Below are positions 8,893-33,243 of a stretch of 64,000 nucleotides of DNA, in pieces (positions within the stretch are counted from its first letter, which is position 1; each line of letters starts with the position of its first letter). Both the position numbers and the translations under genes were made by a program. The notes below the pieces were generated by a model. The model was not told the origin of the DNA. It was given only the letters and a program-made list of their open reading frames with translations, and searched no databases. Source of the DNA: Chthonomonadales bacterium (GTDB lineage: Bacteria > Armatimonadota > Chthonomonadetes > Chthonomonadales > CAJBBX01); NCBI GenBank assembly GCA_037443035.1, contig JBBIPC010000003.1, positions 161,383 to 225,382 of the forward strand. The letters are read 5' to 3'.

Positions 8893-10028
8893 CGTGGGCT
8901 TCCTTGAGGGTAGCCCGCGTGTATCTCGCCAGCGAGGGATTCCAGTGTGTCCGTCGCGATGGCCTCTCGAATGCGTTCCATGAGGTGGGCGTAGAAAGCC
9001 AGGTTATGGTGCGTGGCCAAAATCGGGCCCAGCATCTCCCGCGTGAGGAAGAGATGACGCAGGTAGGCGCGCGAGTGGCTCGTGCACACGTAGCAGCCGC
9101 AGCGTGGATCCACTGGCGTATCGTCCTCCGCGTATCGAGCGTTGCGCAGATTCAGAACGCCCTGGCTGGTAAATACTTGTCCAGTCCGTCCATTGCGAGT
9201 AGGCAGCACACAGTCGAACATGTCCACACCGCGCATGGCAGCATCGAGAATGTCGGCTGGCGTCCCCACACCCATGAGGTACCGCGGCTTCTCCTTGGGG
9301 AGGATGGCCGTGCACCAGGCTACGCATGCGTTTCGGGTTTCCCTGTCTTCGCCGACCGCTAGACCGCCGATGGCATAACCGGGTAGGTCTAGCTCTACCA
9401 TGAACCGTGCGCTGGCCTCCCGTAGGTGTCTGTAGGTGGCTCCTTGTACGATACCGAACAGGGCCTGCGGCCACCCCCCTGCCGCACGTCCACCGCTGCT
9501 CTCATGAGCGGTGTGGCAGCGCACCGCCCACCGATGGGTCCGCTCCATCGCCTGCGTCGCATATTCAAGATCGCAGGGATAGGGCACACACTCATCGAAC
9601 GCCATGATGATGTCGGCACCAAGGTTCCGCTGGATCTCCATGACGGATTCCGGGCTGAAGTAGATGGGGGAGCCGTCCACATGCGATCGGAAACGGATGC
9701 CATCCTCCTCGACACGACGTAGTTCGGCCAGGCTGAAGACCTGGTATCCGCCGCTGTCCGTGAGCAGTGCGCCGCTCCATCCCGTGAACCGATGCAAGCC
9801 ACCCATGCGAGCGATAAGCTGATCGCCTGGGCGAAGATGAAGATGATAGGTATTCGCTAGGACGAGGCCGTATCCCAGCGCCTGGAGGTCCCCGGCGCAG
9901 GCGCCTTTCACCGTTCCCTGAGTACCCACTGGCATGAAACAAGGTGTCCGAACGGTGGCGTGGGGTAGACGAAGAATGCCCGCGCGAGCCTCGCATGCGG
10001 TACTCCGTGCGGCCAGGGAGAACTCCAT
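8889..10028 (-). CDS. tgt: Queuine tRNA-ribosyltransferase (tRNA-guanine transglycosylase)
   Basis: TPCFMPVGTQGTVK, LANTYHLHLRPG, LTDSGGYQVFSL, MAFDEC, FGIVQG, GYAIGGLAVGE, PRYLMGVG, DMFDCVLPTRNGR, CGCYVC zinc site, HNL. Start moved to ATG 10028 because the longer ORF runs through the tRNA. Confidence 0.97.
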   Translation of the reverse strand: MEFSLAARSTACEARAGILRLPHATVRTPCFMPVGTQGTVKGACAGDLQALGYGLVLANTYHLHLRPGDQLIARMGGLHRFTGWSGALLTDSGGYQVFSLAELRRVEEDGIRFRSHVDGSPIYFSPESVMEIQRNLGADIIMAFDECVPYPCDLEYATQAMERTHRWAVRCHTAHESSGGRAAGGWPQALFGIVQGATYRHLREASARFMVELDLPGYAIGGLAVGEDRETRNACVAWCTAILPKEKPRYLMGVGTPADILDAAMRGVDMFDCVLPTRNGRTGQVFTSQGVLNLRNARYAEDDTPVDPRCGCYVCTSHSRAYLRHLFLTREMLGPILATHHNLAFYAHLMERIREAIATDTLESLAGEIHAGYPQGSPR

Positions 10029-10118
10029 AGTGCGGTGAATGCTCGAGGGCTGCATGAACAGGTTAGTGCGTGGATAAGGCCGCCGCCAGATACACTGGCA
10101 TGCGGCCCCCTGCACCAG

Positions 10119-10190
<72 letters not shown>

Positions 10191-10205
10191 CGGTAGACAT
10201 GGCGC

Positions 10206-10235
10206 TTTATACCCGCGGGGACTCCTCCGAGTCAA
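10206..10235 (-). promoter_or_regulatory. Sigma70-type promoter for tRNA-Arg/tgt
   Basis: TTGACT-N18-TATAAA, ending 15 nt upstream of the tRNA 5' end. Confidence 0.65.
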
Positions 10236-10261
10236 CGCGCCACTGGTACGCGCAAGTACTG

Positions 10262-10270
10262 TGCTATAAT
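10262..10270 (+). promoter_or_regulatory. Extended -10 promoter for the rpmH operon
   Basis: TGcTATAAT about 30 nt upstream of the rpmH start; divergent from the tRNA promoter. Confidence 0.6.
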
Positions 10271-10302
10271 GTCTGCGCACTGAAGGTGGAGGATCGGAGA
10301 GA

Positions 10303-10437
10303 GTGAAGCGGACCTACCAACCCAAGAACCGACGCCACAAGAGGGTTCACGGGTTCCTGAAACGAATGGCCACGAAGGATGGCCGCAATGTGCTCAAGGC
10401 GCGTCGCCTCAAGGGACGACACCGCCTCACCGTGTGA
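10303..10437 (+). CDS. rpmH: 50S ribosomal protein L34
   Basis: Translated by hand (absent from the ORF track): [47 protein letters not shown] start after GGAG; directly upstream of rnpA. Confidence 0.97.
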
Positions 10438-13306: not shown

Positions 13307-14257
13307 GTGGGGCATGACCACCACGATGTGGACCTGACGGACCGGCGCATGAAGCTGGCCATTGTCCTCACCGTGGGATTTGTGGCAGCAGAAGCATTGG
13401 CGGGATGGAAAGCCGGTAGTCTGGCTCTCCTCTCGGATGCCGGACACAACCTTACCGATGCCATGGCGCTAGGTCTGTCGGCTTTCGCCGTCTGGATCGC
13501 CCACCGTCCAGCGACAGAGCGTCGCACGTTCGGCTATCATCGAGTCGGCATTCTTACCGCACTGGTCAATGCGGTGACGCTCGTGCTCATGTGCGGCCTT
13601 ATCGTCGTGGAAGCCGTCCATCGCCTCCGGCAGCCTGAGCCCGTGGCGAGCGCATGGATGATCGGTGTGGCGCTGATAGCTCTCGTCCTGAATGGGACGA
13701 TCACACTGATGTTCAGGAAGGCTGCTCACGGCGACATCAACGTGCGCAGTGCGTATCTCCATATGCTATGGGATGCCGTTGCCTCGCTAGGCGTCATCCT
13801 CGCAGGCGTCATTGTTTCTCTGACAGGCAACGTCATCGCCGACCCCCTCGTCTCCCTGCTCATCGCCGCTCTCATCCTCTGGAGCACTTGGGGCATTCTC
13901 AGGGAATCGCTGGACATTCTCTTGGAAGCGACCCCTACGGGCGTGGAGTTGGCTACTCTGGAGAGCACAATCCGAGGCGTTGCCGGCGTGTGCGATGTGC
14001 ACGACCTACACGTGTGGACCATTTCCTCCGGAATACTGGCTGCGAGTTGCCATGTAACGGTGGCCGAAGGCACATCGGCCCGCACGGGACAGGCGCTGGC
14101 CGAGGAGGTCGGCCGGTCTCTGGAGACGCGATTCGGCATCACGCACACCACTGTGCAGGTGGAAGTGGACGGCTGCGAGAGGTCCGATCGCCTCTGTACG
14201 CTGCGAAGAAACGGAGTCCAGCCGAATGGTGAGCAGGTGGCGCCAACGAAGCCATGA
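13307..14257 (+). CDS. Cation diffusion facilitator (CzcD/ZitB-like Zn/Co/Cd exporter)
   Basis: His-rich N-terminus; SLALLSDAGHNLTD (HxxxD in TM2), TFGYHR, NVRSAYLHMLWD (HxxxD in TM5), VHDLHVW, HTTVQVE. Confidence 0.92.
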   Translation: MGHDHHDVDLTDRRMKLAIVLTVGFVAAEALAGWKAGSLALLSDAGHNLTDAMALGLSAFAVWIAHRPATERRTFGYHRVGILTALVNAVTLVLMCGLIVVEAVHRLRQPEPVASAWMIGVALIALVLNGTITLMFRKAAHGDINVRSAYLHMLWDAVASLGVILAGVIVSLTGNVIADPLVSLLIAALILWSTWGILRESLDILLEATPTGVELATLESTIRGVAGVCDVHDLHVWTISSGILAASCHVTVAEGTSARTGQALAEEVGRSLETRFGITHTTVQVEVDGCERSDRLCTLRRNGVQPNGEQVAPTKP

Positions 14258-14858
14258 GGGAGACGCGCGTAGCACTCTCTGGCGTGGAGACGGCCGCCGT
14301 GGCAACGGATGCGCCGAGGGTCGGTCTAGCGGAGCTGGCGTGGACATTCTTCATTATTGGTATCACAGGCTTCGGAGGCGGCATGGCCATCGTCGCACTC
14401 ATCCAGCAGATCTGTGTTGAAAAGAAGCGCTGGCTGACGTCCGATGAGTTCGCCCATGGTGTCGCGCTGAGCCAGTTCCTCGGGGCCTTCACGGTCAACA
14501 CGACAACGTTTGTCGGCTATCGCCTTCGCGGCCTGGCCGGAGCCATTGTGGCCGTGTCGGCGTTCTTGCTCCCGGGAGTCGCAGCCATCACCGTGCTGGC
14601 TGCGCTCTATTTCCGCTATCAACAGCTGCCGGCACTCCAGAGCATGCTGCACGGCATCGGTCCTGTTGTTGTGGCCGTGATACTCGCTGCCGCCTTCCGC
14701 ATGGGGAAAGGGCGCATGGGCGATATCGAGTCCATACTCCTTGCCGCGATGGCGTTTGTCGCGCTGTATGTGCTGTCGGTACCCGTGCTGGCTATCGTGC
14801 TGGGGCTTGTGGTCTACGGGTTCGGACGGAACGCCCTTGTTGGAGGCAGGGAGCCATC

Positions 14859-14862
<4 letters not shown>
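14254..14862 (+). CDS. Short-chain chromate ion transporter (CHR family), first subunit
   Basis: FFIIGITGFGGG, KKRWLTSDEF..GVALSQ, GYRLRGLAGA; ATGA overlaps on both sides. Confidence 0.85.
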
Positions 14863-16821
<1,959 letters not shown>

Positions 16822-22515: not shown

Positions 22516-25500
22516 CTACGAGGTTCCCCGTGTCTCCTCCTCCACGAGGACGGGCCTCCAGCGCCATTCGCGCCCCAGGTAGGTTCGGTTCACCCAGCGC
22601 ACGAAGTCGTCCACGTACGTGTGCATGATGGGAATATCGAAGAGGCTGAGGATCGTGCCCATCGTTAGACCCCCGAGGACGGCCACCGCAAGGGGTTGAT
22701 AGGCGTCCAGACCAGTCTTGGGGAACGCTGCAACCGGAAACATGACGATGATGGTGATGCAGGAGGTCATGAGAATGGGCCGCAGCCGCTGTGGGCACGC
22801 ATTCGCCACCGCCTCGTCTCGTTCCACGCCGGCGTCGCGATAGCGCATGATCATATCGATCAGCAACACAGCGGTCGTGATATCCATACCTGTCAGCACG
22901 ATGATGCCCAGAATGGACACCGTGGAGAAGGCCTGCCCTGAGGCCCAGAGCGCGATGAACACGCCCGAGAGTTCCAAGGGCAGCGAAGCGACCATCTGCA
23001 GTGGTTGGAGGAAGCCCCGGAACTGGACGACGAGCACGAAGTACATGAGGATCAACGCCAGCGCCAGCCCGATCAGTAGCCTGCGGAAGCTGTCCATCAT
23101 CTGGGTCATGTCGCCCCGCATCTCCATACCATACCCGGGTGGGAAGTTCACCGGCGCGACACCAAGCTGCTCGTTCCCGCCATAGGCGTTGGCCACAAGG
23201 TTCATGACCACGTCCATGGACGGGAGGTTCCCAGGGCGGTAGTAGCCAGTAATGCCCATCACCCGACGGAGCCCATCGTGTTCGATGGCAGTGGGTGCTA
23301 CCGTCCTTTCTACTCGCGCCAAGCTCTCCAATGGTACCGCGCGGCCGTCCGAAGTGCTGATATACAGGTCGGCTAGATCCTCGGCAGTACGTCTTTGGCG
23401 CTCGTCGTAACGGATGGAGATCGTGTCCTGCCTGAGGTTGTCCAGTCGGAAGAACTCGTCGGCTAGACCGCCGCGCAGGGCATAGTAGGCTTGATCGGCA
23501 ATGTCCCGTGGCGTCAGACCCAGGCTCTGTGCACGGTCTCGGTCCACCTGTATCTTGTACGATGGGACGCCCATCGCCCACGTGGTGGCCGGTTGAAACA
23601 GCTCGGGCATCTTTTGCGCAGTCGTTAGCACCTGTCGGCCGATCCGGTCCAACTCCTGCAGATCAGGGCCGTAGATGTTCACATGTATGGGTGCCGCCGC
23701 CGTTGCCATGACGTCGGAGCCCATCTCCTTGATCTGGAGCCGCCGTATGCCCGGTATGGTCGCTAGGGCCTCTCGCTGCACCCCGTCTATCACCTGGAAG
23801 ATCGTACGGCGGCGCTTGTCTTTATCGCTCAGGGTCAGCATGAACGCAGCGGCGTTGGCGGCGGGCATTTGGTAGCCAGTAAAGTACGGGCTCCAGGTCT
23901 CGAACATGGACTCCGCTCCAACTTCGATACTGGCCTTCTCGATCTCTGGGTAGCGGAGCATGATCTCCTCGAGCTTGTGCACCGCCTTTGCCGTAGCGTC
24001 GAACGATGTGCCCGGCTGCATCTCTAGGACTCCGCTCGCCTGTCCGACGTCGGCTAGGGGCATCATCTCGGAGCCGATGAAGTAATAGAACGTAGACCCC
24101 ACGATCACTGTGGCAGCGATGCGGGAGAGGTTGGCGAAGCGATGCCGGAGCATCCACCGGACGGAACGGGCGTAGCCCGCCTCCATTCTATCGAGAACGC
24201 GCTGCACCGGGTCGAGGACCATGTACAGATGCCGTAGAACGGGCTTCTGACGATCCGCTCGCCGCTCCTCGTCATGCCGCAGCAGGTTCGCTGCCAGCAG
24301 CGCCGTGAGCGTGAACGAGACCAACATGGAGGCGACAAGCGCGAAGATCAATGGCCAGACCAGCTCGCGGAACATGGCCTCCGTGATACCGCCCGAGAAA
24401 AGAAGCGGCGAAAGCGCGATGACGACCATGGTCGTGGAGGCGATGACCGCCAACCGCACCTCAGCGATGCCGTCTATGGTGGCGGTCTTGGGATCTTTGC
24501 CCATTCGCAAGTGCCGCTCCACGGCGTGAATGTCGATGATGCTGTCGTCCACGAGCCGGCCAATGGAGAGCAACAGGCCCACGAGCGTGCCGCTGTTGAA
24601 CGTCATGCCGAAGGGGAGCATGAACAACACCGCCAGCGCCAGCGAAGTCGGGATGGTGATCAGGGAAATGAGCGTGCCGCGCCATTCGCCTAGGAAAAGG
24701 AGCACCGCGATCGCCGTCAGCAGAATGGCCAGACCAAGCTCGTGCCAGACGTTGTCGAAGAGAATGCCCACGAAATGTGCGTTGTCGTAGGCCACCTCGA
24801 AGCGAACGCCAGGGTTCTCGCGCTCCAACTCACGGATGATCTCCATGACTTTCGGCACCACGCGCGCCGAGCTAGCTCCGGGGTCCTGGATGACCGACAC
24901 GCCGATGGACGGCAGTACCTCCCCCTTGCCGCCCGGAGGATGGTTGAGGAATCTGTAGGCCGAGCGGCGCTCCCAGTGGCCATCGAACACGCGCGCCACG
25001 TCGCCCACGCGGATGATCTGCGGAGGCCCACTGCTATCGCTCGGGCTGCCTCCACCCGGTCGCGGTTCGGACTCCGCCGGCGCACCTGCCGTGCCCATGC
25101 CACCCATGGCTCCGGACCCCCCATCGGGTGCTGTGGCGCTGACAGAGGGGCGGGCCGTGCGGATCGGGTAGCGCCGCACGTCCTCGGGAGTTCGCGCTCG
25201 CGTATCCACGCGGACAATGCCCTCAGCCTCTCCGGTCGTGAGGTTGCCGGCTGGACGATTGATGCTCTGCCGATCTATGGCGGCCTTCACGTCTAGGATG
25301 GACAGTCCCCGTGCGGCCAGCTTGTCCCGGTCCACCACCACCTGGAGCTGACGGCGATAGCCGCCGAACGGTACGACCGAATACACGTTGTCCACGCGCT
25401 TGAGACGGTTCACGACCGCGTTATCGGCGAACTCGCGCAACCGCCTCAGATCCCATCCACTACCTGGATCTGCCCGAAGGCTGAAGGTGATGACTGGTAG

Positions 25501-25983
25501 GTTCAGTGGGTCAATGGGAACGACCCACGACGGCTTCAGATTAGCGCCTGTGGCTGGAAGGTTCGCCTGGACCACGTTCATGAGCGCCTGGACGTCGAAG
25601 ACCGCCTGCTTCATGTCGTACCCATAGTTGAACTCCAACGCGACGATGGAGAAGCCTTCTTGGGACGTTGACCTAATGTAGCGGACGCCACGGATGTGCA
25701 CAAGCTGCTCTTCGATGGGCTTGGTGATATTCAGCTCCATCTCCTCTGGTGATAGCCCCGGCATCATCGTCACGACGCCCACCATGGGGCTTTCCACATA
25801 CGGAGCGAACCGTCGCGGGATGACACGGGTGATGGCGAGGCCCGCCATGGCGATCACGACGATGTAGAAAGCAATGATCGCGTACGGGTGCTCGATGGAC
25901 CAGCGATGGATCATGTGCAGCGCCGTCAGACCACGTCCATGGGCGGCGCTGACTGAACGGCGGAGCGGTTCTGGGACTGTCAT
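22516..25983 (-). CDS. RND efflux transporter permease subunit (AcrB/CusA superfamily)
   Basis: PGLSPEEME..ITKPIEE, STSQEGFSIV, TLISLITIPTSL, GRLVDDSI, SFTLT, RLRPILMTS, PLAVAVLGGL; ATGA overlap with the MFP gene. Confidence 0.93.
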   Translation of the reverse strand: MTVPEPLRRSVSAAHGRGLTALHMIHRWSIEHPYAIIAFYIVVIAMAGLAITRVIPRRFAPYVESPMVGVVTMMPGLSPEEMELNITKPIEEQLVHIRGVRYIRSTSQEGFSIVALEFNYGYDMKQAVFDVQALMNVVQANLPATGANLKPSWVVPIDPLNLPVITFSLRADPGSGWDLRRLREFADNAVVNRLKRVDNVYSVVPFGGYRRQLQVVVDRDKLAARGLSILDVKAAIDRQSINRPAGNLTTGEAEGIVRVDTRARTPEDVRRYPIRTARPSVSATAPDGGSGAMGGMGTAGAPAESEPRPGGGSPSDSSGPPQIIRVGDVARVFDGHWERRSAYRFLNHPPGGKGEVLPSIGVSVIQDPGASSARVVPKVMEIIRELERENPGVRFEVAYDNAHFVGILFDNVWHELGLAILLTAIAVLLFLGEWRGTLISLITIPTSLALAVLFMLPFGMTFNSGTLVGLLLSIGRLVDDSIIDIHAVERHLRMGKDPKTATIDGIAEVRLAVIASTTMVVIALSPLLFSGGITEAMFRELVWPLIFALVASMLVSFTLTALLAANLLRHDEERRADRQKPVLRHLYMVLDPVQRVLDRMEAGYARSVRWMLRHRFANLSRIAATVIVGSTFYYFIGSEMMPLADVGQASGVLEMQPGTSFDATAKAVHKLEEIMLRYPEIEKASIEVGAESMFETWSPYFTGYQMPAANAAAFMLTLSDKDKRRRTIFQVIDGVQREALATIPGIRRLQIKEMGSDVMATAAAPIHVNIYGPDLQELDRIGRQVLTTAQKMPELFQPATTWAMGVPSYKIQVDRDRAQSLGLTPRDIADQAYYALRGGLADEFFRLDNLRQDTISIRYDERQRRTAEDLADLYISTSDGRAVPLESLARVERTVAPTAIEHDGLRRVMGITGYYRPGNLPSMDVVMNLVANAYGGNEQLGVAPVNFPPGYGMEMRGDMTQMMDSFRRLLIGLALALILMYFVLVVQFRGFLQPLQMVASLPLELSGVFIALWASGQAFSTVSILGIIVLTGMDITTAVLLIDMIMRYRDAGVERDEAVANACPQRLRPILMTSCITIIVMFPVAAFPKTGLDAYQPLAVAVLGGLTMGTILSLFDIPIMHTYVDDFVRWVNRTYLGREWRWRPVLVEEETRGTS

Positions 25984-28250
25984 CGAACCGTGTCCTTTCT
26001 CACCAGAGCCATCCCGCACTTAGGGCAACGACCCGGTGCGTCTGCCACAACCTCGGGATGCATAGGACACGTGTAGCGGGGTGCCGTAGTGTGTTGGTGG
26101 GTCGTCGCGGCTCCCGAGCGAGCACTCCCCGCCGGCATGGATCCCGCCGCAGGGCCAGTGGTGTCCACGACCTCGTCGCCATCGTGGAGCCCGGCCCAGC
26201 CTTTCACCACAACGCGGTCGCCTGCTTGGAGCCCTTCGATCACCTCGTAGAAGCGCTCATCATGGGCCCCCGTCCTTATCGGGACGCGCTCGACGGTGGC
26301 CGTCGGCCCCTGCTGCACGCGCCAGACGGTATGCTGCACCGAGCGACCCTCGACACCCGAAGCGGCGAGTGCCTCCTCCCGCACGGCCTCGGCAGGAATG
26401 CGGAGCGCACGCTGCCGCGACGCGACGACGATGCTCATGCGGATGGCTTCCCCCACTCTGAAGCGTCCGTCCGCATTGGGCCAGACCGCCTCCACCAGGG
26501 CCGTGCGTGTCGAACCGTCCACGTAGGGAGCGACGCTGGTGATGCGCGTCAGGACAGTCCGGTCCGGTTTCTCCGGCCTCCAGACGCGCACAGCGGCTCC
26601 TACGCGGACCAGAGGGAGATCTGCCTCGGAGACCCTTGCCTGAAGACGCACAGGCGTTAAGGGGACCATGCGAAGCACCGTTTGGCCAGCCGTCACGTAG
26701 ACACCGGGCGATATGCGGCGCTCGGTGATCACGCCGTCTGCCGTGGCTCGAATGATCGTGTAGCGCTCGGTCGTCTCGGCTCCCAGAAGCATAGCCCGCG
26801 CCTGCCGAACGCTCGCTTGCCTTGCTGCGGCTTGCCGGCGCGCCGTGTCGAGACCTGCTTCTGTCATCCGTAGGCTCTGAGCGGCTGAATCGTTGTCGGC
26901 TCGGGCTTGTTGCAGCCGGCTCGAGGCGGATTGCACGGCTGCCACGGCGCTACTCTGTGCCGCCTTCATCCTCCGTACCTCGGCTTCGGCCTCCTTGATG
27001 CCGGCTTCTGCGGCGGTAAGCGCAGCTCGTGCTCGGGCGGTCTCCGTCTGGGTCCGTTGGAGTTCTTCCAGCGAAACGACACCACGCGCTTTGAGGCGCT
27101 CCATCCGCGCGAGTTCCGCGTCCCAGTACGCAACGTCCGATGCAGCCGCCTGCTGGCTGGCTTTGGCGGCGGAGAGCTTTTCCGTAGCTGCAACCACAGC
27201 TTCCTGCGCTTCCGATGCTTCTGCACGCGCTTGCTCCAGCTCAGATCTTGCCGCGGCCAGAGCCGACTGTTTCGCCGCTGCATCGGCCCGAGCGCGCTCT
27301 ACGTCGGCCTGCACTCGGCGCACCTCCGAAGTAGCCGCTTGCGCTTCGAGCGTGGCCTGCTCCACCATGCCGGCACGTTCCGCGACGACCGGTTCCGTGG
27401 ACGAGCGGTCGAGCCGCAGCAGCACGTCGCCGCGTCTAACCCGGGTGCCGACATAGACCGGCATCTCGACGATCCAACCGCCTACCCGAGGAATAATGTC
27501 CTGCTCCACCCAGCCCGTGACCTGTCCAAGGTAGCTGACCGTCTGCTCGACCGGCCCGTACCCCGCCACGGCCGTCTCGACCGAGGCAACGCCCGGTGGA
27601 GGCGGCGTCTCCATCTCCATGGCCTGCGCTTCAATGGGCGTCATGGCGCCGGGGCGTCGCCAGTTCCGTACCGCGTACATCGCGATGGCGATGGCAAGGC
27701 CGAGCAAGAGGATACTGCCCCAGACGCCCGGCTTGGCCAGTTGCGACCACGGAATACGCTGGCCACTTCGCCGCATACCAATCCACGTGAGGATCGCAAG
27801 CGCGGCTCCTGCGAGGGCCACCAGGAGACCCAAGGTCAGGCCATGTCCTACGCCCTCGGCGGTGTTCATCCCCGTGGCGAGCTTCACCTGAGCGCGTCGC
27901 TGGCGGTCACCGGTGATGACGGTGATATCCGCGACGTAGTCTCCAGCCATGGCAAAGACCGCCGGTGCTTCGTAGACACCAGGCGCATCGGGAAGCGGTC
28001 GGGCCGTCTGTTCCTTCTCGCCCATGTCCATAGCCGGCATGCGTACGAACACGCGGACAGTGGCACCCGTGACCGGCTGTCCGTTCTCCTTCAGCTCCAC
28101 CCGGACCTTGGCCTTGCCAACTGCGATGATTGGCGGATCGGTGCGCACGATGACTGTAAGCCCGTCTGCGGTGGTGCGCACCGGGTCTGCTGCGGCCAGC
28201 AGAGGCACGAACGTCAACAGAGCGCTGAGATATGCTGCCACGCGGTTCAT
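25980..28250 (-). CDS. RND membrane-fusion protein with an N-terminal YtkA/FixH-like domain and a C-terminal heavy-metal-binding domain
   Basis: Signal peptide; PVTGATV..RMPAMDMG...GVYEA..VFAMAGDY; two TM helices; lipoyl halves PRVGGWI...GDVL and IRATADGVI; long coiled coil; GLQAGDRVV; YTCPMHPEVVADAPGRCPKCGMALV. Confidence 0.9.
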   Translation of the reverse strand: MNRVAAYLSALLTFVPLLAAADPVRTTADGLTVIVRTDPPIIAVGKAKVRVELKENGQPVTGATVRVFVRMPAMDMGEKEQTARPLPDAPGVYEAPAVFAMAGDYVADITVITGDRQRRAQVKLATGMNTAEGVGHGLTLGLLVALAGAALAILTWIGMRRSGQRIPWSQLAKPGVWGSILLLGLAIAIAMYAVRNWRRPGAMTPIEAQAMEMETPPPPGVASVETAVAGYGPVEQTVSYLGQVTGWVEQDIIPRVGGWIVEMPVYVGTRVRRGDVLLRLDRSSTEPVVAERAGMVEQATLEAQAATSEVRRVQADVERARADAAAKQSALAAARSELEQARAEASEAQEAVVAATEKLSAAKASQQAAASDVAYWDAELARMERLKARGVVSLEELQRTQTETARARAALTAAEAGIKEAEAEVRRMKAAQSSAVAAVQSASSRLQQARADNDSAAQSLRMTEAGLDTARRQAAARQASVRQARAMLLGAETTERYTIIRATADGVITERRISPGVYVTAGQTVLRMVPLTPVRLQARVSEADLPLVRVGAAVRVWRPEKPDRTVLTRITSVAPYVDGSTRTALVEAVWPNADGRFRVGEAIRMSIVVASRQRALRIPAEAVREEALAASGVEGRSVQHTVWRVQQGPTATVERVPIRTGAHDERFYEVIEGLQAGDRVVVKGWAGLHDGDEVVDTTGPAAGSMPAGSARSGAATTHQHTTAPRYTCPMHPEVVADAPGRCPKCGMALVRKDTVR

Positions 28251-29599
28251 GGCTTCTCTCCTTCTCTTGTCGCGGATGTTGCCCCACCGGAGGCGCCGTC
28301 CGGGCTGGCGCCCAGGACGCGCTCCAGCCGCACCAGCGCCATCTCGTGGTCGAACATGGATCGAGCCAAGGCCAGTTCGGCCTCGCGGACTGCCGCGAGA
28401 GCATCGAGCTCCTCCACGAGAATGCTCTTCTGGTTCTGCACGCGTTCGCTGTAAACAGTGTAGGACGCGCGCGCCGCGTTCACTCCTGCCTGCGCCGCCT
28501 CGACAGCACTCTGCGCAGCGACCATGTCGAACCACGCCTTTCGGATACCCTCTTCGACACTCAGCGATGTTGCGGTTGTTCGCTCGCGAGATGCTTGCTC
28601 CTCTGCATCCGCCATCTTACGCATGCTCCGCCTGCGGCCCCCGTCGTAGAGCGGCCATGAGGCCGCGAGGCCGACGGCCGACATACCTGTGCCGCGCATG
28701 CCCCGCGAGCCACGCACGTCTCCCATGGCCATGGCATACACCTGGACCGACTGCTCCCCGCGTGCTATGGCCGCCTGCGCAGCAGCAGACTCGCTGGAAG
28801 CCCGGGCGATCCGAAGCGCCGGAGCATCCTTGCGGCCGGCGGCAAGAGCTGCTTCGAGGGTCCAAGCTGGCTTCGTGAGGGATAGCTCCTCCGTAAGCTC
28901 CAGGCGAGTGCCCGGGGACAGACCCATAACCGCAGCAAGCTCCACCAGACTTTTCGCTCGCTCGGCCTCGGCCAACGCGATATCCCTGCTGGCAGCCATG
29001 GCTTCCGAACGAGCCCGAAGATACTGAGCCTCGATGCCCTTGCCTTCTTGCCAGAGCGCCCGGGCGTTCTCGGCCATTGCCGATGCCGCGTCGTACTGCG
29101 CCTTGGCCACGCGCAGCGTCGCTTCAGCCAACAGCACCTTCAGGTAGGCTTCTTTCGTGGCGGCGCTGACATCCGCCCGGACACGTGCCAGGTCAGCCTC
29201 GGCCTCGACAAGCATGGCACGGGCCCGGCGGATGGACGCCTGTACGATGCCTCCTGTGTACACAGGCACCATGGCGACTGCCTGCAGCGTCCCGCCACCG
29301 TCGGCTCCCACCCTCCCCCTGGTGGCAGGTTCCGCCGCAGGAGGCGATTCCATCACCGCTTCGTCGCTCGCTGCTGCTCCGTACGCCGATAGCGTCGCTT
29401 GGAGCCCCGCCGCCGCGCGAGCTGCCGCCAGCCCCGAACGAGCGGCTTCGACGCGTGCCCGCGCCGCCGCGACACTGGGGCTGCGTGCATAAGCTTGTGC
29501 CACCGCCTGCGCCATGGTCAAGCGCTGTGGCGTTTGCGCGTCTGTCCGGATCGCCAGCAAAGCAACCCAGACCCATACGATGTGAGTTGTACGAACCAT
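28247..29599 (-). CDS. TolC-family outer membrane efflux protein
   Basis: Signal peptide; LTMAQAVAQAYARSP, PVYTGG and PLYDGG repeats, long Ala-rich helices; first gene of a TolC-MFP-RND operon. Confidence 0.88.
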   Translation of the reverse strand: MVRTTHIVWVWVALLAIRTDAQTPQRLTMAQAVAQAYARSPSVAAARARVEAARSGLAAARAAAGLQATLSAYGAAASDEAVMESPPAAEPATRGRVGADGGGTLQAVAMVPVYTGGIVQASIRRARAMLVEAEADLARVRADVSAATKEAYLKVLLAEATLRVAKAQYDAASAMAENARALWQEGKGIEAQYLRARSEAMAASRDIALAEAERAKSLVELAAVMGLSPGTRLELTEELSLTKPAWTLEAALAAGRKDAPALRIARASSESAAAQAAIARGEQSVQVYAMAMGDVRGSRGMRGTGMSAVGLAASWPLYDGGRRRSMRKMADAEEQASRERTTATSLSVEEGIRKAWFDMVAAQSAVEAAQAGVNAARASYTVYSERVQNQKSILVEELDALAAVREAELALARSMFDHEMALVRLERVLGASPDGASGGATSATREGEKP

Positions 29600-29717
29600 T
29601 CCCTTCTCCTACTTGCGCTCATGCATCCTGGCGATGCGCCTGGTATGGGATGTAACGGAGCTTACGCCTCGGCCTCAGCTTCTCGGCAACGAGAGTTAGC
29701 GAGAAAGCCGGGATCGG

Positions 29718-30152
29718 TTACGAGAAGAAGGGCGGTGCGCGCGGACGGCGATGAAGAGGTGGAGGGCAGTTCGGCGGATGGACGTCGGCGGGATCGGCGC
29801 AGGTTGCCGAGGGCGGCGTCACGATCCATTCCGTTCCGGTTAGGGGCGCTACCGGTGTCGGATGGAACGTTATCGAGTTTGGCAGGGGCGAGTCCGGCAC
29901 GGTGACCCGCGCCTGGCACGACATGCCGCTGGACACTGTGGGCTGCGACCGGTCCGGTTGCACACTGCCTGGGCAGCATGCCGAGGCCGGCTCGACCACT
30001 ACCGTCCGTCGGGCGCCGTGCGAGCAGTAGAAGTCGCACGGCATTCCATCCGTGCAGAACCAACCGACGTGCGGAAACGCCGCGGCCAGTGCCATGAGTG
30101 CTACGCCCCGCGCGAAGATCCGCCTAAGCCGGTTGTGGACGATGGCTGCCAT
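29718..30152 (-). CDS. Cys-rich leader protein ending in RAPP (DUF2946/CruR-like candidate ribosome-arrest peptide)
   Basis: N-terminal basic plus hydrophobic segment, C-X5-C-X3-C and CC clusters, Pro-rich tail ending RPRAPPFFS; 118 nt upstream of tolC on the same strand. Confidence 0.7.
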   Translation of the reverse strand: MAAIVHNRLRRIFARGVALMALAAAFPHVGWFCTDGMPCDFYCSHGARRTVVVEPASACCPGSVQPDRSQPTVSSGMSCQARVTVPDSPLPNSITFHPTPVAPLTGTEWIVTPPSATCADPADVHPPNCPPPLHRRPRAPPFFS

Positions 30153-30162
30153 TGTTACGAAC

Positions 30163-30189
30163 TACGGCAGCGGTCTGCGAATCGTTTCC
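30163..30189 (-). promoter_or_regulatory. Putative ECF-sigma promoter (GGAAAC-N17-CGTA) for the leader/RND operon
   Basis: Fills the 37-nt gap between the ABC gene stop and the leader ATG; CGTA ends 10 nt before the ATG; no SD, so a near-leaderless transcript. Confidence 0.55.
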
Positions 30190-31128
30190 TCATCGGTTCG
30201 CGCCGCTGCTCGCCCGAGCGACGAGCGCTCGGAACGCCGTCCACAGATCTCCGCGGGCGGCATAAATCACCCGGACACCGCCCGCAGGATGCCGGAGAAG
30301 ATGTGCCGCTACCGCTGTCGAATCTGCACCAGCGATGCGGAGTCCCTGTGGCGTCTCCACGACCTCGACATCGAAGATTCCACGCAGAGTCCGCTGGACC
30401 GTCGAGGGGTCGGCTGCCTCCACCGTGATGCTGTCGGGAGCGTAATCGCGGACGAGACCTGCCGTATCCTCCAAGGCCAGCACGTGTCCCCGGTGGAGGA
30501 TGAGCACGCGGTCCGAACGCTCCGCCTGCCTACTGCTAGCGGTAGCGTGCAGCACTGCCATACCGTCCGCAGCACGCCGACCGTCGAGGAAGCTCCGGAA
30601 CCGTTCCGCCGCGGGCTCAGGCACAGACCCGAGCACATCATCGAGAAGCAACACTGGCGGCTCGGCGGCAATCGCGAACACAAGCTCCAGCATGATCCGT
30701 TGTACTGGTGTCGTGTCCCGTTCAGGCATCTCGCGGAGGTCCTGCAAGCCCATGATCTCGAGGGCTGCTTCGGCACGTCCTTCCCTCCGCGTCTTTGGCG
30801 TGCCATAGGCGGCAAGACGCTGAGTCAGGCGCTGAAGCACGGTGAGACGGCCAGGGGGAGCGAGCAACTGCCGAATGAAGAGCGGGCACACTGCACGTAC
30901 GTCACCAGCTTCGGGACGCAAGTCGCCAGCTACGAGGCGGAGCAGGACAGACTTGCCGGCCCCGGGAGGTCCGAATGCCGTCACCCACTGCCCCTCCTCC
31001 ACGCGGAGCGAGAGGTCCTGGAACCCGCCCTCGCCAGCGAATCGGAGCGTTGCCCCACGGACTTCTACAGGCGGTTTCCCGTATGCGCCGGCCGACTCGT
31101 GGGAGGTGTGCTCGATGTTACCAGCCAA
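30190..31128 (-). CDS. ABC-type ATP-binding protein with degenerate catalytic motifs
   Basis: Walker A GPPGAGKS; signature position reads TTPVQ; Walker B LLLDD; no His at the switch (HATAS); DrrA-like C-terminal extension. Confidence 0.75.
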   Translation of the reverse strand: MAGNIEHTSHESAGAYGKPPVEVRGATLRFAGEGGFQDLSLRVEEGQWVTAFGPPGAGKSVLLRLVAGDLRPEAGDVRAVCPLFIRQLLAPPGRLTVLQRLTQRLAAYGTPKTRREGRAEAALEIMGLQDLREMPERDTTPVQRIMLELVFAIAAEPPVLLLDDVLGSVPEPAAERFRSFLDGRRAADGMAVLHATASSRQAERSDRVLILHRGHVLALEDTAGLVRDYAPDSITVEAADPSTVQRTLRGIFDVEVVETPQGLRIAGADSTAVAAHLLRHPAGGVRVIYAARGDLWTAFRALVARASSGANR

Positions 31129-31134
31129 GCGTTG

Positions 31135-33243
31135 CTACCTTCGCTCGATTACCAACTTGGCCGCCGCGATGTCAACTCGCCAGAGCTCACCGGTAGCTGA
31201 GTCTATGAAGAAGCGGTTCTTGATCGGCTCCACATCGCAGACGATGCACAATCGGTCTTCTCCCAGCACCCGGATGGTCTGCAGCTCCGGCTGGCTTTTG
31301 AACGTCAGTTCGACTCGTTGCATGGTCGCAGCCGCGAAGAACGGCACGACCCGAGTATCGCCGGGCCTGATGCGCATGGAGCGGCAGTCGAGAGAGAACA
31401 GACTGATCAGATTGTTCATTTGCAGCAGCACACCGCGCTGTACCGGAAGCGACCGAACCACGGGCATTTCACCGATCTTCAGGTCCGCAGCGACCTTGCC
31501 AGCCGTGAATGTGTACGTGCCGGTCTGCCGCGTGCCTGACACTCCTGCGTCGAAGGTCAGCTTGCGAGGTGAACCATCCTCGAAGAGCGAGTAACCTCCG
31601 AGCATGCTCACCTTCTGTGGTGGCGTGCCGACCTCTATCGTGAAGCTATAGGTCCAATCGCTGTAGGCGCGATCTCCCTCGACTCCAACTTGTACGCAAC
31701 GCGCCGTCTGCTCGCCGATCTCCTTGCCGTCAGCAAGGAAGACCCAGCGCTCCGAATCGCCCACCTTGGGACGGTACGTCTCGCCGCGGGGTGCTTCTGC
31801 CGCAGGTTCCAGTTTGGGGGCGTAGTCGAGCACCTCGATGTTGACAGACTTCAGCCCGGCCAAGTTCCATAGAGTGAGGTGGGCAGGGCTCAGCGTGCCC
31901 ACTTCTCCGGTGGTCGTGTCTATGGGCACCCAGCCGTCCTGGCCCATCCACACGCGCGTCCAGTAGTGCTGGCCGAACGACCCACCCAGTGCCTCCGAGT
32001 AAAGCACGCCGCCTGTGATGCGGGCAGGTATCCCGGCGGCACGGCAGAGAGCGATGGTCAGCCACGTATGGGGTCCGCAGTCTCCCTTCTTGGTGCGCAG
32101 GCACTCCAACGCACCCGAACCCGTGATGGCGTACCGGATGTTCTTGTGCACCCAGTCGCCTATGCGTTTCACGGCATCCCAGGATGTCGTCGCGCCCCCC
32201 ACAAGCTTCTTGGCTAGCGCCCGTATCTCAGGGTCGTCGCATTCGATGTTCGGCTCAGGACGCAAGTATCGGGCAAGGGCTGGGTCCTTGGGGCGCATAG
32301 CGCCGAGTGGCGGAGCATGGGAGGGTGTGTAGGTATACCGATCGATCTCGAACACGCCATCTACGACGCCATCCGCGGCCGTGCCAGTGAACTTCTGCGT
32401 GGGGGTCTGGAGGGAGGCGGGCGTTGGTTTCTCGCCTGATACCCCGATGCGAGCATGCACCTTCAGAAAGGACAGCTTGTCCGCCGATGGGAGCGGATCA
32501 TTGACAATCGCGAACAGTCGGGCGCCGACATCGTAAGTACCTAGACCCTTGAGAGCGGCTAGGCCGGCCAGTCTGAACACGGCTTTCTGGTCGGGCACCC
32601 GCATCTCGATGAGATCTCGCTTGCCACGCGCCACGAGCAGTTCGATACCTACGCCGTCGCCCTGCACGCCGATGCGATCGCAAATGCGAGTCCCTTGCGG
32701 TGTGTCGGCTCTCGCCGTCTCGAGGCGCTTGAGCCGCAGAGTACGAATCGCCCCACCCAGCGGCGCCAAGACACGCAGCGACGCTGGTACCTTATCACCC
32801 CAGCGCGCTACGGCCATGGCCCACGTATCCATGCTGTTTCCCTCGATGACGCATGTATCGGGGGTCCACGGTAATACCTTGGTGGTCGGCTTTCCTGCTA
32901 TCGTGCCAGTTACGCGGACCGTCTTGGCGCTTACGACGCAGTCCACCTTTACCTTCTCATTTCCACGCTGGAAATCGAGGGTGTAGCGCTTGAGCCGTCC
33001 GCTGGTCGTGTAGAAGCCGGTGGCCCGGTAGGTCATGTCGAATGGCGATCCCAGGAGCTTCACTTTGATGGCTGTCTCGCTATTGACTGAAACGCCATTG
33101 GCACCCTTGGTCCTCGTGTAGCGGCTGTAGCCGATGCGTCTTCCCTCCATGGTCAGTTCGTAGACGGTGGGAGCCTGGGCCAGGGCACCGACCATGCAAC
33201 CTATGGCCAGCAGCAGAGTACAGACTAGGCTGCGGATTCTCAC
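31135..33243 (-). CDS. Exported transglutaminase-like domain protein
   Basis: Signal peptide; KKGDCGPH (Cys), ALCRAAGIPAR, GQHYWTRV (His), WVPIDTT (Asp); beta-rich flanking domains. Confidence 0.85.
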   Translation of the reverse strand: MRIRSLVCTLLLAIGCMVGALAQAPTVYELTMEGRRIGYSRYTRTKGANGVSVNSETAIKVKLLGSPFDMTYRATGFYTTSGRLKRYTLDFQRGNEKVKVDCVVSAKTVRVTGTIAGKPTTKVLPWTPDTCVIEGNSMDTWAMAVARWGDKVPASLRVLAPLGGAIRTLRLKRLETARADTPQGTRICDRIGVQGDGVGIELLVARGKRDLIEMRVPDQKAVFRLAGLAALKGLGTYDVGARLFAIVNDPLPSADKLSFLKVHARIGVSGEKPTPASLQTPTQKFTGTAADGVVDGVFEIDRYTYTPSHAPPLGAMRPKDPALARYLRPEPNIECDDPEIRALAKKLVGGATTSWDAVKRIGDWVHKNIRYAITGSGALECLRTKKGDCGPHTWLTIALCRAAGIPARITGGVLYSEALGGSFGQHYWTRVWMGQDGWVPIDTTTGEVGTLSPAHLTLWNLAGLKSVNIEVLDYAPKLEPAAEAPRGETYRPKVGDSERWVFLADGKEIGEQTARCVQVGVEGDRAYSDWTYSFTIEVGTPPQKVSMLGGYSLFEDGSPRKLTFDAGVSGTRQTGTYTFTAGKVAADLKIGEMPVVRSLPVQRGVLLQMNNLISLFSLDCRSMRIRPGDTRVVPFFAAATMQRVELTFKSQPELQTIRVLGEDRLCIVCDVEPIKNRFFIDSATGELWRVDIAAAKLVIERR

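Follow-up and report, generated by a model that had tools for sequence, protein, structure and literature searches.

Nascent-chain metal sensing has been worked out in just two proteobacterial cases, which are opposite in sign. In Rhodobacter capsulatus, periplasmic copper prolongs a C-terminal stall in CutF, which melts a stem-loop and unmasks the ribosome-binding site (RBS) of cutO (PMC9973294; bioRxiv 10.1101/2025.02.05.636593). In Bordetella pertussis, copper relieves the arrest of CruR (Bp2923), the prototype of the DUF2946/PF11162 family (Roy et al. 2022, PMC9426467), whereupon Rho causes termination ahead of the importer gene (PMC9426467); arrest at RAPP or RGPP, in which the P and A sites hold the two Pro codons, has been demonstrated in vitro for CruR (PMC12992588). 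Here, an open reading frame (ORF) of 144 amino acids (aa) carrying RAPP near its end was analyzed, located at positions 29718..30152 on the minus strand of a 64,000-nucleotide (nt) stretch of a Chthonomonadales bacterium of the phylum Armatimonadota (assembly GCA_037443035.1, contig JBBIPC010000003.1; the whole stretch is hereafter called the window). The ORF lies upstream of genes for TolC, a periplasmic adaptor and a resistance-nodulation-division (RND) permease. The interpretation favored, to which a probability of about 0.7 is assigned, is that it encodes a cis-acting nascent-chain regulator of the CutF/CruR type that would turn on the tolC-adaptor-RND operon via arrest at RAPP. This reading is considered the best because a conserved, signal-bearing, Cys-rich ORF with R(A/G/S)PP (110 of 115 short family representatives) precedes genes for outer-membrane efflux proteins (OEP), adaptors or RND permeases in 24 of the 33 loci surveyed.

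The leader ORF starts with ATG and stops with UAA. All the elements that the original prediction had read in it (144 aa, an export-like N-terminus, eight Cys, CC, a Pro-rich part and a terminal RPRAPPFFS) were present, on the minus strand, which that prediction had not specified. Its translation begins with a basic and then hydrophobic N-terminus, continues with CTDGMPCDFYCSH and CC, and is Pro-rich in the second half; the eight Cys are C33, C39, C43, C59, C60, C79, C118 and C129. Several segments, all on the minus strand, can be distinguished within the gene, which the ORF list and family conservation place at 144 aa plus stop. Residues 1-27 (30072..30152) comprise the basic N-terminus and a hydrophobic helix, a putative signal peptide or signal anchor according to the AlphaFold2 model and the family consensus. 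On the basis of conservation, residues 31-79 (29916..30062) constitute a putative cysteine sensor domain, with W31-x-C33-x-D-G36-x-P-C39, C43, C59-C60 and C79. Residues 80-137 (29742..29915) form a Pro-rich linker that in the alignment is poorly conserved in sequence and conserved in length, and that includes P126. R138-A-P-P141 (codons CGC GCA CCG CCC; 29730..29741) is the putative arrest motif, as judged from the sequence and family conservation, and is followed by a three-codon tail, FFS, plus UAA (29718..29729), which together with the Pro codons forms CCGCCCUUCUUCUCG (29721-29735). The AlphaFold2 model (mean predicted local distance difference test, pLDDT, 73) shows a helix at residues 2-25 with pLDDT 89-98 and paired strands at residues 28-33 and 79-84, the remainder being coil. 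A small-x-small (A/S) pattern stands immediately before W31 in the family consensus. A lipoprotein reading was rejected, since the residue preceding C33 is F, Q, V or R and never G, A or S.

A word-indexed protein search with the single ORF gave no match at E<=0.01, and the exact leader sequence was absent from a collection of 15 billion proteins; thus, the leader has seemingly never been called as a gene. Nevertheless, conservation confirmed, at the level of sequence, that the ORF is a real gene. Six-frame searches of related genomes revealed a same-genus homologue at 41% identity (E 8e-14), homologues in two genomes of another genus (E about 1e-12) and weaker full-length matches elsewhere. 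In an alignment of nine sequences (24-33% identity), W31, C33, G36, P38, C39, C59, C60, P126, R138, P140 and P141 were invariant, and a profile built from these nine sequences gave matches in 31 of the 301 genomes sampled from the phylum. These matches were concentrated in the order of the window, with 10 of 14 and 11 of 18 genomes of two families, and the window's own genome carries one family copy. R[AGS]PP was found near the frame end in 26 of the 30 loci returned, the exceptions being one LSPP variant and three weak partial matches. Furthermore, the leader frame has a GC content at third codon positions (GC3) of 0.76, versus 0.69-0.78 in neighbouring genes and 0.59-0.65 in three long overlapping ORFs in other frames; spurious long ORFs overlap the leader on both strands. 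A search of sequencing runs for the locus listed only DNA runs (share <=0.26) and no RNA run.

An exhaustive profile search of 1.84 billion representative proteins (E<=1e-3) matched 123 cluster representatives, from which 8 long multi-repeat proteins (835-3644 aa) were set aside, leaving 115 short ones (<=260 aa). Conservation of the Cys and of R(A/G)PP had been proposed in the original prediction as a check, and it was indeed found: R-x-P-P occurs in the last 25 residues of 110 of the 115 short representatives (RAPP in 87, RSPP in 14, RGPP in 9, none in 5), as in RAPP-type arrest peptides, where R-A/G-P-P lies near the C-terminus, and the Cys positions C33, C39, C59, C60 and C79 are invariant or conserved in at least 90% of the sequences. 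The tail after the motif measures 3-4 residues in 90 of these 110, and the W.C..G..C pattern is present in 110 of the 115. Four of the five representatives lacking the motif are short (111-122 aa) and apparently truncated at the C-terminus, and the fifth (155 aa) has LPPP and was retained in alignment A2, which comprises the window ORF and 109 representatives. In A2, whose sequences are only about 14% identical per column, C33, P140 and P141 are invariant, and W31, G36, C39, C59, C60, C79, P126 and R138 are conserved in at least 90%. The spacing between C33 and C39 is 6 in 109 of 109 sequences, and the distance from the last conserved Cys (C79) to R138 has a median of 62 (interquartile range 60-63, range 59-68; 108 sequences), with 59 in the window, whereas the median from C60 to R138 is 82. 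P126 is conserved in 101 of 110 sequences, about 10-12 residues before R138, and most relatives have CxxC at the C59-C60 position, where the window has CC.

This family appears, from the sequence comparisons made, to belong to no named family among those compared, and would functionally be of the CutF/CruR type. The window ORF matched no Pfam family at E<=1 and no consistent Pfam family was found across the 110 members; the NCBIfam search matched none of nine members, and a PDB sequence search with the family gave no match. The nearest ESM Atlas clusters were unnamed hypothetical proteins and also DUF6769, at 0.95 with only 121 shared features; DUF6769 is absent among the Pfam families listed for the 110 members (25 of 41, with one member each). 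Where relatives are named in the sources, they are labelled "hypothetical protein", and four of them come from Chthonomonadaceae or Chthonomonadales metagenome-assembled genomes (MAGs; lineage Armatimonadota).

Some variation within the family was also observed. A subgroup (P0014, P0016, P0020, P0024, P0035, P0038, P0046, P0048, P0067, P0089 and P0112) has RAPP twice near the C-terminus, the two copies being separated by roughly 10-15 residues, e.g., ...SPRAPP...SPRAPPILL, a possible tandem arrest site. In many members of a sister family (e.g., P0012, P0021, P0050 and P0099; L031 and L058), a second conserved tunnel segment, F(F/Y)PQRFLRPxxGRAPP, stands immediately before the arrest motif, and in the subfamily of the window it is replaced by (G)PP 10-12 residues before the Arg. 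In locus L012 (G019; 9653-10348, minus strand), an in-frame insertion of ~40 residues splits the signal sequence relative to the close relative G014; misassembly, insertion of a mobile element and decay of this copy are all possible.

The gene context was surveyed in 33 loci. In 24 of them, RND-system genes follow the leader on its own strand, namely in the window, G017, G021, the second copies of G005 and G018, G032, G009, G037, G035, G025, G164, G098, G038, G309, four MAGs, G014, G011, G040, G243, G036 (counted on its YtkA domain only, at a contig edge) and G019 (counted on an ORF layout matching that of G014, with domains unscanned). The gene order in these loci is OEP-adaptor-RND or adaptor-RND(-OEP), and the adaptors bear YtkA, HMBD (twice in G005 and G018) or Cupredoxin_1. 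Another three loci stop at a contig edge (G001, G254 and G073), the next ORF of G001 starting like the TolC of the window. No uptake-type gene, including TonB receptor genes, was seen downstream of the leader in the 33 loci; the downstream functions identified across the family are all of efflux or stress type, and redoxins also occur, with redoxin/thioredoxin-fold genes downstream in two loci (G030 and one Chthonomonadales MAG).

As the original prediction had claimed, the leader of the window precedes a TolC-MFP-RND operon, with three genes downstream on the minus strand. The first encodes an OEP/TolC of 450 aa (28247..29599; PF02321, E 4.8e-45). The second encodes a CusB-type periplasmic adaptor with metal-binding domains (25980..28250), with an N-terminal YtkA (4.7e-14), HlyD_D23 (1.9e-19) and a C-terminal HMBD (8.2e-15), and the adaptors of related loci have the same domains or Cupredoxin_1. 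The third encodes an RND permease (ACR_tran; 22516..25983, probable ATG at 25983; PF00873, E 1.2e-194). The adaptor ATG (28250) overlaps the tolC stop as ATGA and the permease ATG (25983) overlaps the adaptor stop in the same way; therefore, the three genes are probably translationally coupled. The copper-type domains that had been attributed to the operon were found on the adaptor but not on the permease, on which multidrug-type families score higher. Indeed, in NCBIfam the permease scored 328.7 bits with TIGR00914 (CusA/CzcA; cut-off 701) versus 553 bits with the generic multidrug RND_permease_2, all scores being below cut-off, and its best solved relative in PDB was MdtB (307.6 bits; ZneA, 187). 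Thus, the CusA/CzcA family did not outscore other RND families, contrary to what would be expected for a heavy-metal efflux (HME) type permease. The absence of a CusRS, CueR or CsoR regulator nearby, also noted in the original prediction, applies to the 18 ORFs that were scanned (13.3 to 40.9 kb), several of which have no Pfam match.

Concerning the surroundings, 37 nt separate the leader ATG from the end of an upstream ABC (ATP-binding cassette) ATPase gene, and immediately upstream of the latter lies a gene for a 702-aa protein (DUF6134 plus transglutaminase-like core; 31135-33243, minus strand). This gene is on the strand of the leader operon, and read-through transcription into the leader is possible. 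The permease contains a Gly/Ser/Pro-rich insertion of about 45 residues at about residues 290-335, in the first periplasmic half, and its Pfam alignment falls in two stretches, the best one starting at residue 334. About 7 kb beyond the end of the pump, a metal-related cluster was observed (13307-15407, plus strand), with a cation-diffusion-facilitator gene (Cation_efflux plus ZT_dimer) followed by a split chromate-transporter pair. Two genomes have two family copies each (L013 in G005 and L015 in G018). In both, one copy precedes adaptor(2xHMBD)-RND-OEP, while no long ORF occurs in the 0.9-1.1 kb or so after the "orphan" copy, beyond which genes for SpoU methylase or dihydroxy-acid dehydratase are found. 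In G009, G037 and two MAGs, the leader and the OEP gene are separated by small ORFs (137-213 aa). In L068 (G025), a small ORF for a 115-aa secreted, Cys/Met-containing protein lies between leader and adaptor, about 98 nt past the leader stop; the pairing of its Shine-Dalgarno (SD) sequence (GAGGAAAA) with the last leader codons was calculated at -19.5 kcal/mol, which none of 420 control windows equalled, the start having been picked after the duplex was seen.

The comparison with known leaders places this family closest to CutF and CruR in function. Like CutF, the leader directly precedes a copper-related envelope gene in the same orientation, and release of the RBS of the next gene by a stalled ribosome is proposed for it. 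With 144 aa, the two Pro at residues 140-141 and tolC 118 nt downstream, it also agrees on these points with the description of CutF-like proteins. However, it has WxCxDGxPC plus CC/CxxC plus C (six Cys), whereas CutF has CxxxC; it ends in R-A-P-P instead of a Pro repeat; the phylum is different; and SD sequestration is only modestly predicted in the window. The family is thus set apart from CutF by motif description, and no sequence relationship could be shown. In the survey of CutF-like proteins by Ozturk et al. (2023), RND outer-membrane efflux proteins were the most frequent downstream neighbours (PMC9973294). Hence, the pairing of a leader with an RND pump, which had been put forward as uncharacterised, is so with regard to experiments, but it has been described bioinformatically for CutF-like proteins, and the claim of a new system fails on this account, as a leader preceding RND genes is already in print (PMC9973294). 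A survey of RAPP/RGPP small ORFs upstream of metal genes does not contain the terms "efflux", "RND" or "TolC" (PMC12992588). A full-text literature search found no paper tying Armatimonadota or Chthonomonas to arrest peptides, nor any additional work connecting CutF, DUF2946 or CzcI with RND pumps. CzcI of Cupriavidus metallidurans is likewise a small exported protein upstream of a czcCBA-type RND operon and a suggested metal-sensing regulator, but reportedly lacks a C-terminal Pro motif (PMC9973294).

With CruR, the leader shares the nature of a cis-acting upstream ORF (uORF) of an envelope metal system and a conserved spacing from the Cys motif to RAPP (PMC9426467). Nevertheless, the CxxC of CruR lies 45 +/- 2 residues before RAPP (PMC9426467), versus about 62 (last Cys) and about 80 (CC/CxxC) in the leader, and the leader precedes an efflux system instead of a TonB-dependent importer, so that the expected logic is inverted. 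Membership in DUF2946, for which a search had been suggested, was contradicted by the data: PF11162 matched 0 of the 110 family members at E<=1 and nothing in the window's genome at E<=0.01, and hhalign of A2 (110 sequences) against four same-order DUF2946 sequences, a thin set, aligned only 11 columns around RAPP with a probability of 1%. True DUF2946 genes ending in RAPP/RGPP do occur at other loci of same-order genomes (3 of 41 genomes over the Pfam cut-off, the window's genome having none). Small proteins of the DUF2946 type (HxH, CxxC-x-W) ending in SSRAPP or SSRGPP were also observed at L046 (G311), L047 (G038), L051 (G309) and L054 (G028). As these loci are separate from those of the six-Cys family, these genomes carry two unrelated RAPP leader families. 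ApdA, ApdP and their relatives resemble the leader in that they are small proteins, secreted or targeted to the membrane, with a C-terminal RAPP/RGPP and encoded upstream of the gene they regulate (PMC7897499, PMC10951233, PMC10987492); however, they monitor the Sec/YidC machinery, whereas the leader precedes an efflux pump and has a conserved Cys domain. Altogether, the interpretation given in the original prediction was partly supported.

From these comparisons we infer the export of the leader, its arrest, the signal perceived, the direction of that signal and the route of coupling, which could be combined as follows. Guided by its signal sequence, the nascent chain would reach the Sec translocon, and residues 31-79, the six-cysteine domain, would enter the periplasm during ongoing translation. 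The ribosome would then arrest at R138-A-P-P141, when Pro140 occupies the P site and Pro141 the A site, and the linker of ~60 residues would span exit tunnel and translocon, placing the last conserved Cys at the periplasmic mouth. Because the conserved linker of ~62 residues is long enough for tunnel plus translocon, the whole Cys domain would be periplasmic at arrest. The state of this domain would set the duration of arrest, its likeliest input being the binding of a thiophilic metal, e.g., Cu(I) or Ag(I). The arrested ribosome would keep tolC-adaptor-RND on by covering the anti-SD segment and thus freeing the tolC RBS, by obstructing Rho along the C-rich stretch, or in both ways, and the ATGA overlaps would relay translation to the adaptor and then to the permease. 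Metal would prolong arrest, as in CutF, and the pump would be made at high periplasmic metal; this direction is favored because the downstream functions identified are all of efflux or stress type, no uptake gene was found and CutF provides a precedent.

The two coupling routes were explored in the 118-nt intergenic region (29600..29717, minus strand), which contains a hairpin, the tolC SD and the 3' edge of a region richer in C than in G (C>G bubble). The hairpin is formed by GGCUUUCUCG (29700-29709) with CCGAGAAGC (29678-29686). The PPFFS codons, CCGCCCUUCUUCUCG, are complementary to the tolC SD, GGAGAAGGG (29601-29609), and are paired with it in the minimum-energy fold. This duplex has -17.1 kcal/mol versus -11.2 +/- 2.5 for other 24-nt windows of the leader, and 1.3% of 387 leader windows match its strength. 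Among 14 loci, the duplex was at or below 3.1% of windows in 7, and pairing within the own locus exceeded cross-locus pairing (-13.65 vs -10.30; permutation p about 1e-4, 13 loci). SD unmasking is weakly predicted by modelling in the window. The C>G bubble extends from about 29900 to 29670, with a peak of C 50% and G 18% near 29745, and C>G was found in the last 200 nt plus intergenic region of 12 of 12 loci checked, which fits Rho control. An Rfam search of the region gave no match, and a terminator scan detected no terminator-like site in the intergenic region and two weak ones inside or upstream of the leader.

Several results weigh against the proposed regulation. The link to metal rests on the adaptor domains, since the permease is not clearly of heavy-metal type, and the six conserved Cys could make disulfides instead of a metal site. 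No RND gene was found in the examined stretch of 6 of the 33 loci (the first copies of G005 and G018, G030, G028, G033 and G085). The invariance in A2 is slightly flattered, and that of P140 and P141 arises partly by selection, because six short representatives (four without the motif, one truncated at the N-terminus and one without W.C..G..C) were dropped before the alignment. With regard to the RNA, anti-SD pairing was ordinary in the other 7 of the 14 loci, including the same-genus G001, in which 65.9% of windows were as good, and the start codons used in the pairing tests were picked by eye, that of G025 after the duplex had been seen. Masking of the stall footprint raised the unpaired probability of the SD in the window from 0.14-0.26 to 0.28-0.31, and from 0.36 to 0.45 with a slightly different SD window, a modest rise; accessibility rose clearly in only 3 of the 11 loci modelled and not at all in 6. 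Moreover, the fold of the whole region was no better than that of shuffled sequences (z 0.47), and the C-richness is partly due to the Pro codons themselves.

A transcriptional layer may also exist. A promoter-like motif of extracytoplasmic function (ECF) type in shape, GGAAAC (30184-30189)-N16-CCGTAG (30162-30167), was found on the minus strand at 30162..30189. It ends 10 nt before the leader ATG, with no SD in between, which points to a leaderless transcript or a very short 5' untranslated region. GGAAC was present at -50..-25 in 13 of 30 homologous loci versus 2.9% of random control segments, a difference whose p-value is overstated because the loci are related to one another, and alignments by eye showed (C/G)GTA-type elements ~17 nt after GGAAC at the same place in related loci. 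A scan of 29500-30450 for the sigma-70 consensus detected no site. Conservation of this ECF-like motif suggests a transcriptional control layer; the ECF-like promoter announced in the original prediction thus stands as a conserved motif, but not as a mapped promoter. The loose pattern G[GA]AAC-N16-17-[CG]GTA had 219 matches genome-wide versus about 179 expected, and was uninformative as a regulon search. Contig C6 of the same genome contains, on the minus strand at about 28.5-29.5 kb, a gene for an ECF sigma factor of 208 aa. A promoter motif of the leader's type, GAAAC-N16-CCGTA, lies 11 nt upstream of the start of this gene, and a 104-aa ORF follows it, which has an HxxxCxxC motif like that of zinc-anti-sigma factors. 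This sigma factor is a candidate regulator of the leader-pump operon, only a lead, as its motif is one of the 219 loose matches.

Among the alternative explanations, an arrest leader working in the CruR direction, an idea of the original prediction, was weighed first. Binding of metal or folding of the Cys domain would pull the chain and relieve arrest, after which Rho would terminate or the SD would re-close; the pump would then be made under metal limitation, implying metallophore export or metal delivery and not detoxification. The C>G bubble, which covers the final third of the leader and runs into the intergenic region, does resemble the rut region of cruR, and the intergenic region is long, with 118 nt, as is that of cruR with 162 nt (PMC9426467); in addition, the conserved spacing from Cys to RAPP suits a pulling-force model, and the permease resembles the multidrug or organic-substrate type more than CusA/CzcA. 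This direction is nonetheless rather unlikely, considering that the genes downstream encode efflux components, adaptors with HMBD, YtkA or cupredoxin domains, and redoxins, that neither a TonB receptor nor another uptake gene appeared in the survey, and that CutF shows the opposite sign for a detoxification gene (PMC9973294). Also rather improbable is that a six-Cys module without sequence relationship to DUF2946 evolved independently and was joined to RAPP via the ~62-residue spacer, with the module at the translocon exit and a signal in the CruR direction or of thiol-redox type. If so, an RND pump of organic-substrate type would be made under metal limitation, e.g., for metallophore export, and the conserved ECF-type promoter would be a second control layer.

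Sensing of thiol redox, disulfide formation or general export capacity, in which oxidative folding of the six Cys or Sec activity would release the arrest, would account for six conserved Cys within about 47 residues and for the pairing of the C33- and C79-bearing strands in the model. It would also agree with the redoxin/thioredoxin-fold genes downstream in G030 and one MAG, and with the RAPP uORFs that occur upstream of DsbA and thioredoxin genes (PMC12992588). It is nevertheless improbable, as the dominant context is that of RND systems with metal-binding adaptor domains and no leader was found adjacent to a Dsb gene. Metal RND operons commonly encode small periplasmic metal-binding proteins, and conservation within the leader protein is highest in the Cys domain; the leader could also be a CusF-like chaperone that binds metal in the periplasm as a mature accessory protein of the pump, with a non-regulatory RAPP. 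This explanation is very improbable, however, because it gives no reason for R-x-P-P lying 3-4 residues from the stop in most representatives or for a linker conserved in length only, and because RAPP/RGPP is depleted from proteomes generally (PMC12992588). Finally, a chance untranslated frame in GC-rich DNA, to which the empty word-indexed search, the absence of the exact sequence from the 15-billion collection and the long overlapping ORFs on both strands might point, is hardly credible and was rejected on conservation, given that many genera have protein homologues (25-41% identity) in which Cys, Trp and RAPP are invariant, and that GC3 is 0.76 in this frame only.

Under the regulation through arrest at RAPP that we favor, the leader probably switches the pump, judging by analogy with CutF and CruR. 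Because the leader is unannotated here and its relatives are labelled as hypothetical, pump operons of this type could look unregulated without necessarily being so. The family, from a little-studied phylum, shares its architecture with the two proteobacterial leaders, but its sensor module differs, its spacer is of another, tightly conserved length and its output is an efflux pump. It would thus offer a useful natural test of how a periplasmic event may be transmitted through translocon and tunnel to the peptidyl-transferase centre, and of what may set the sign of the response.

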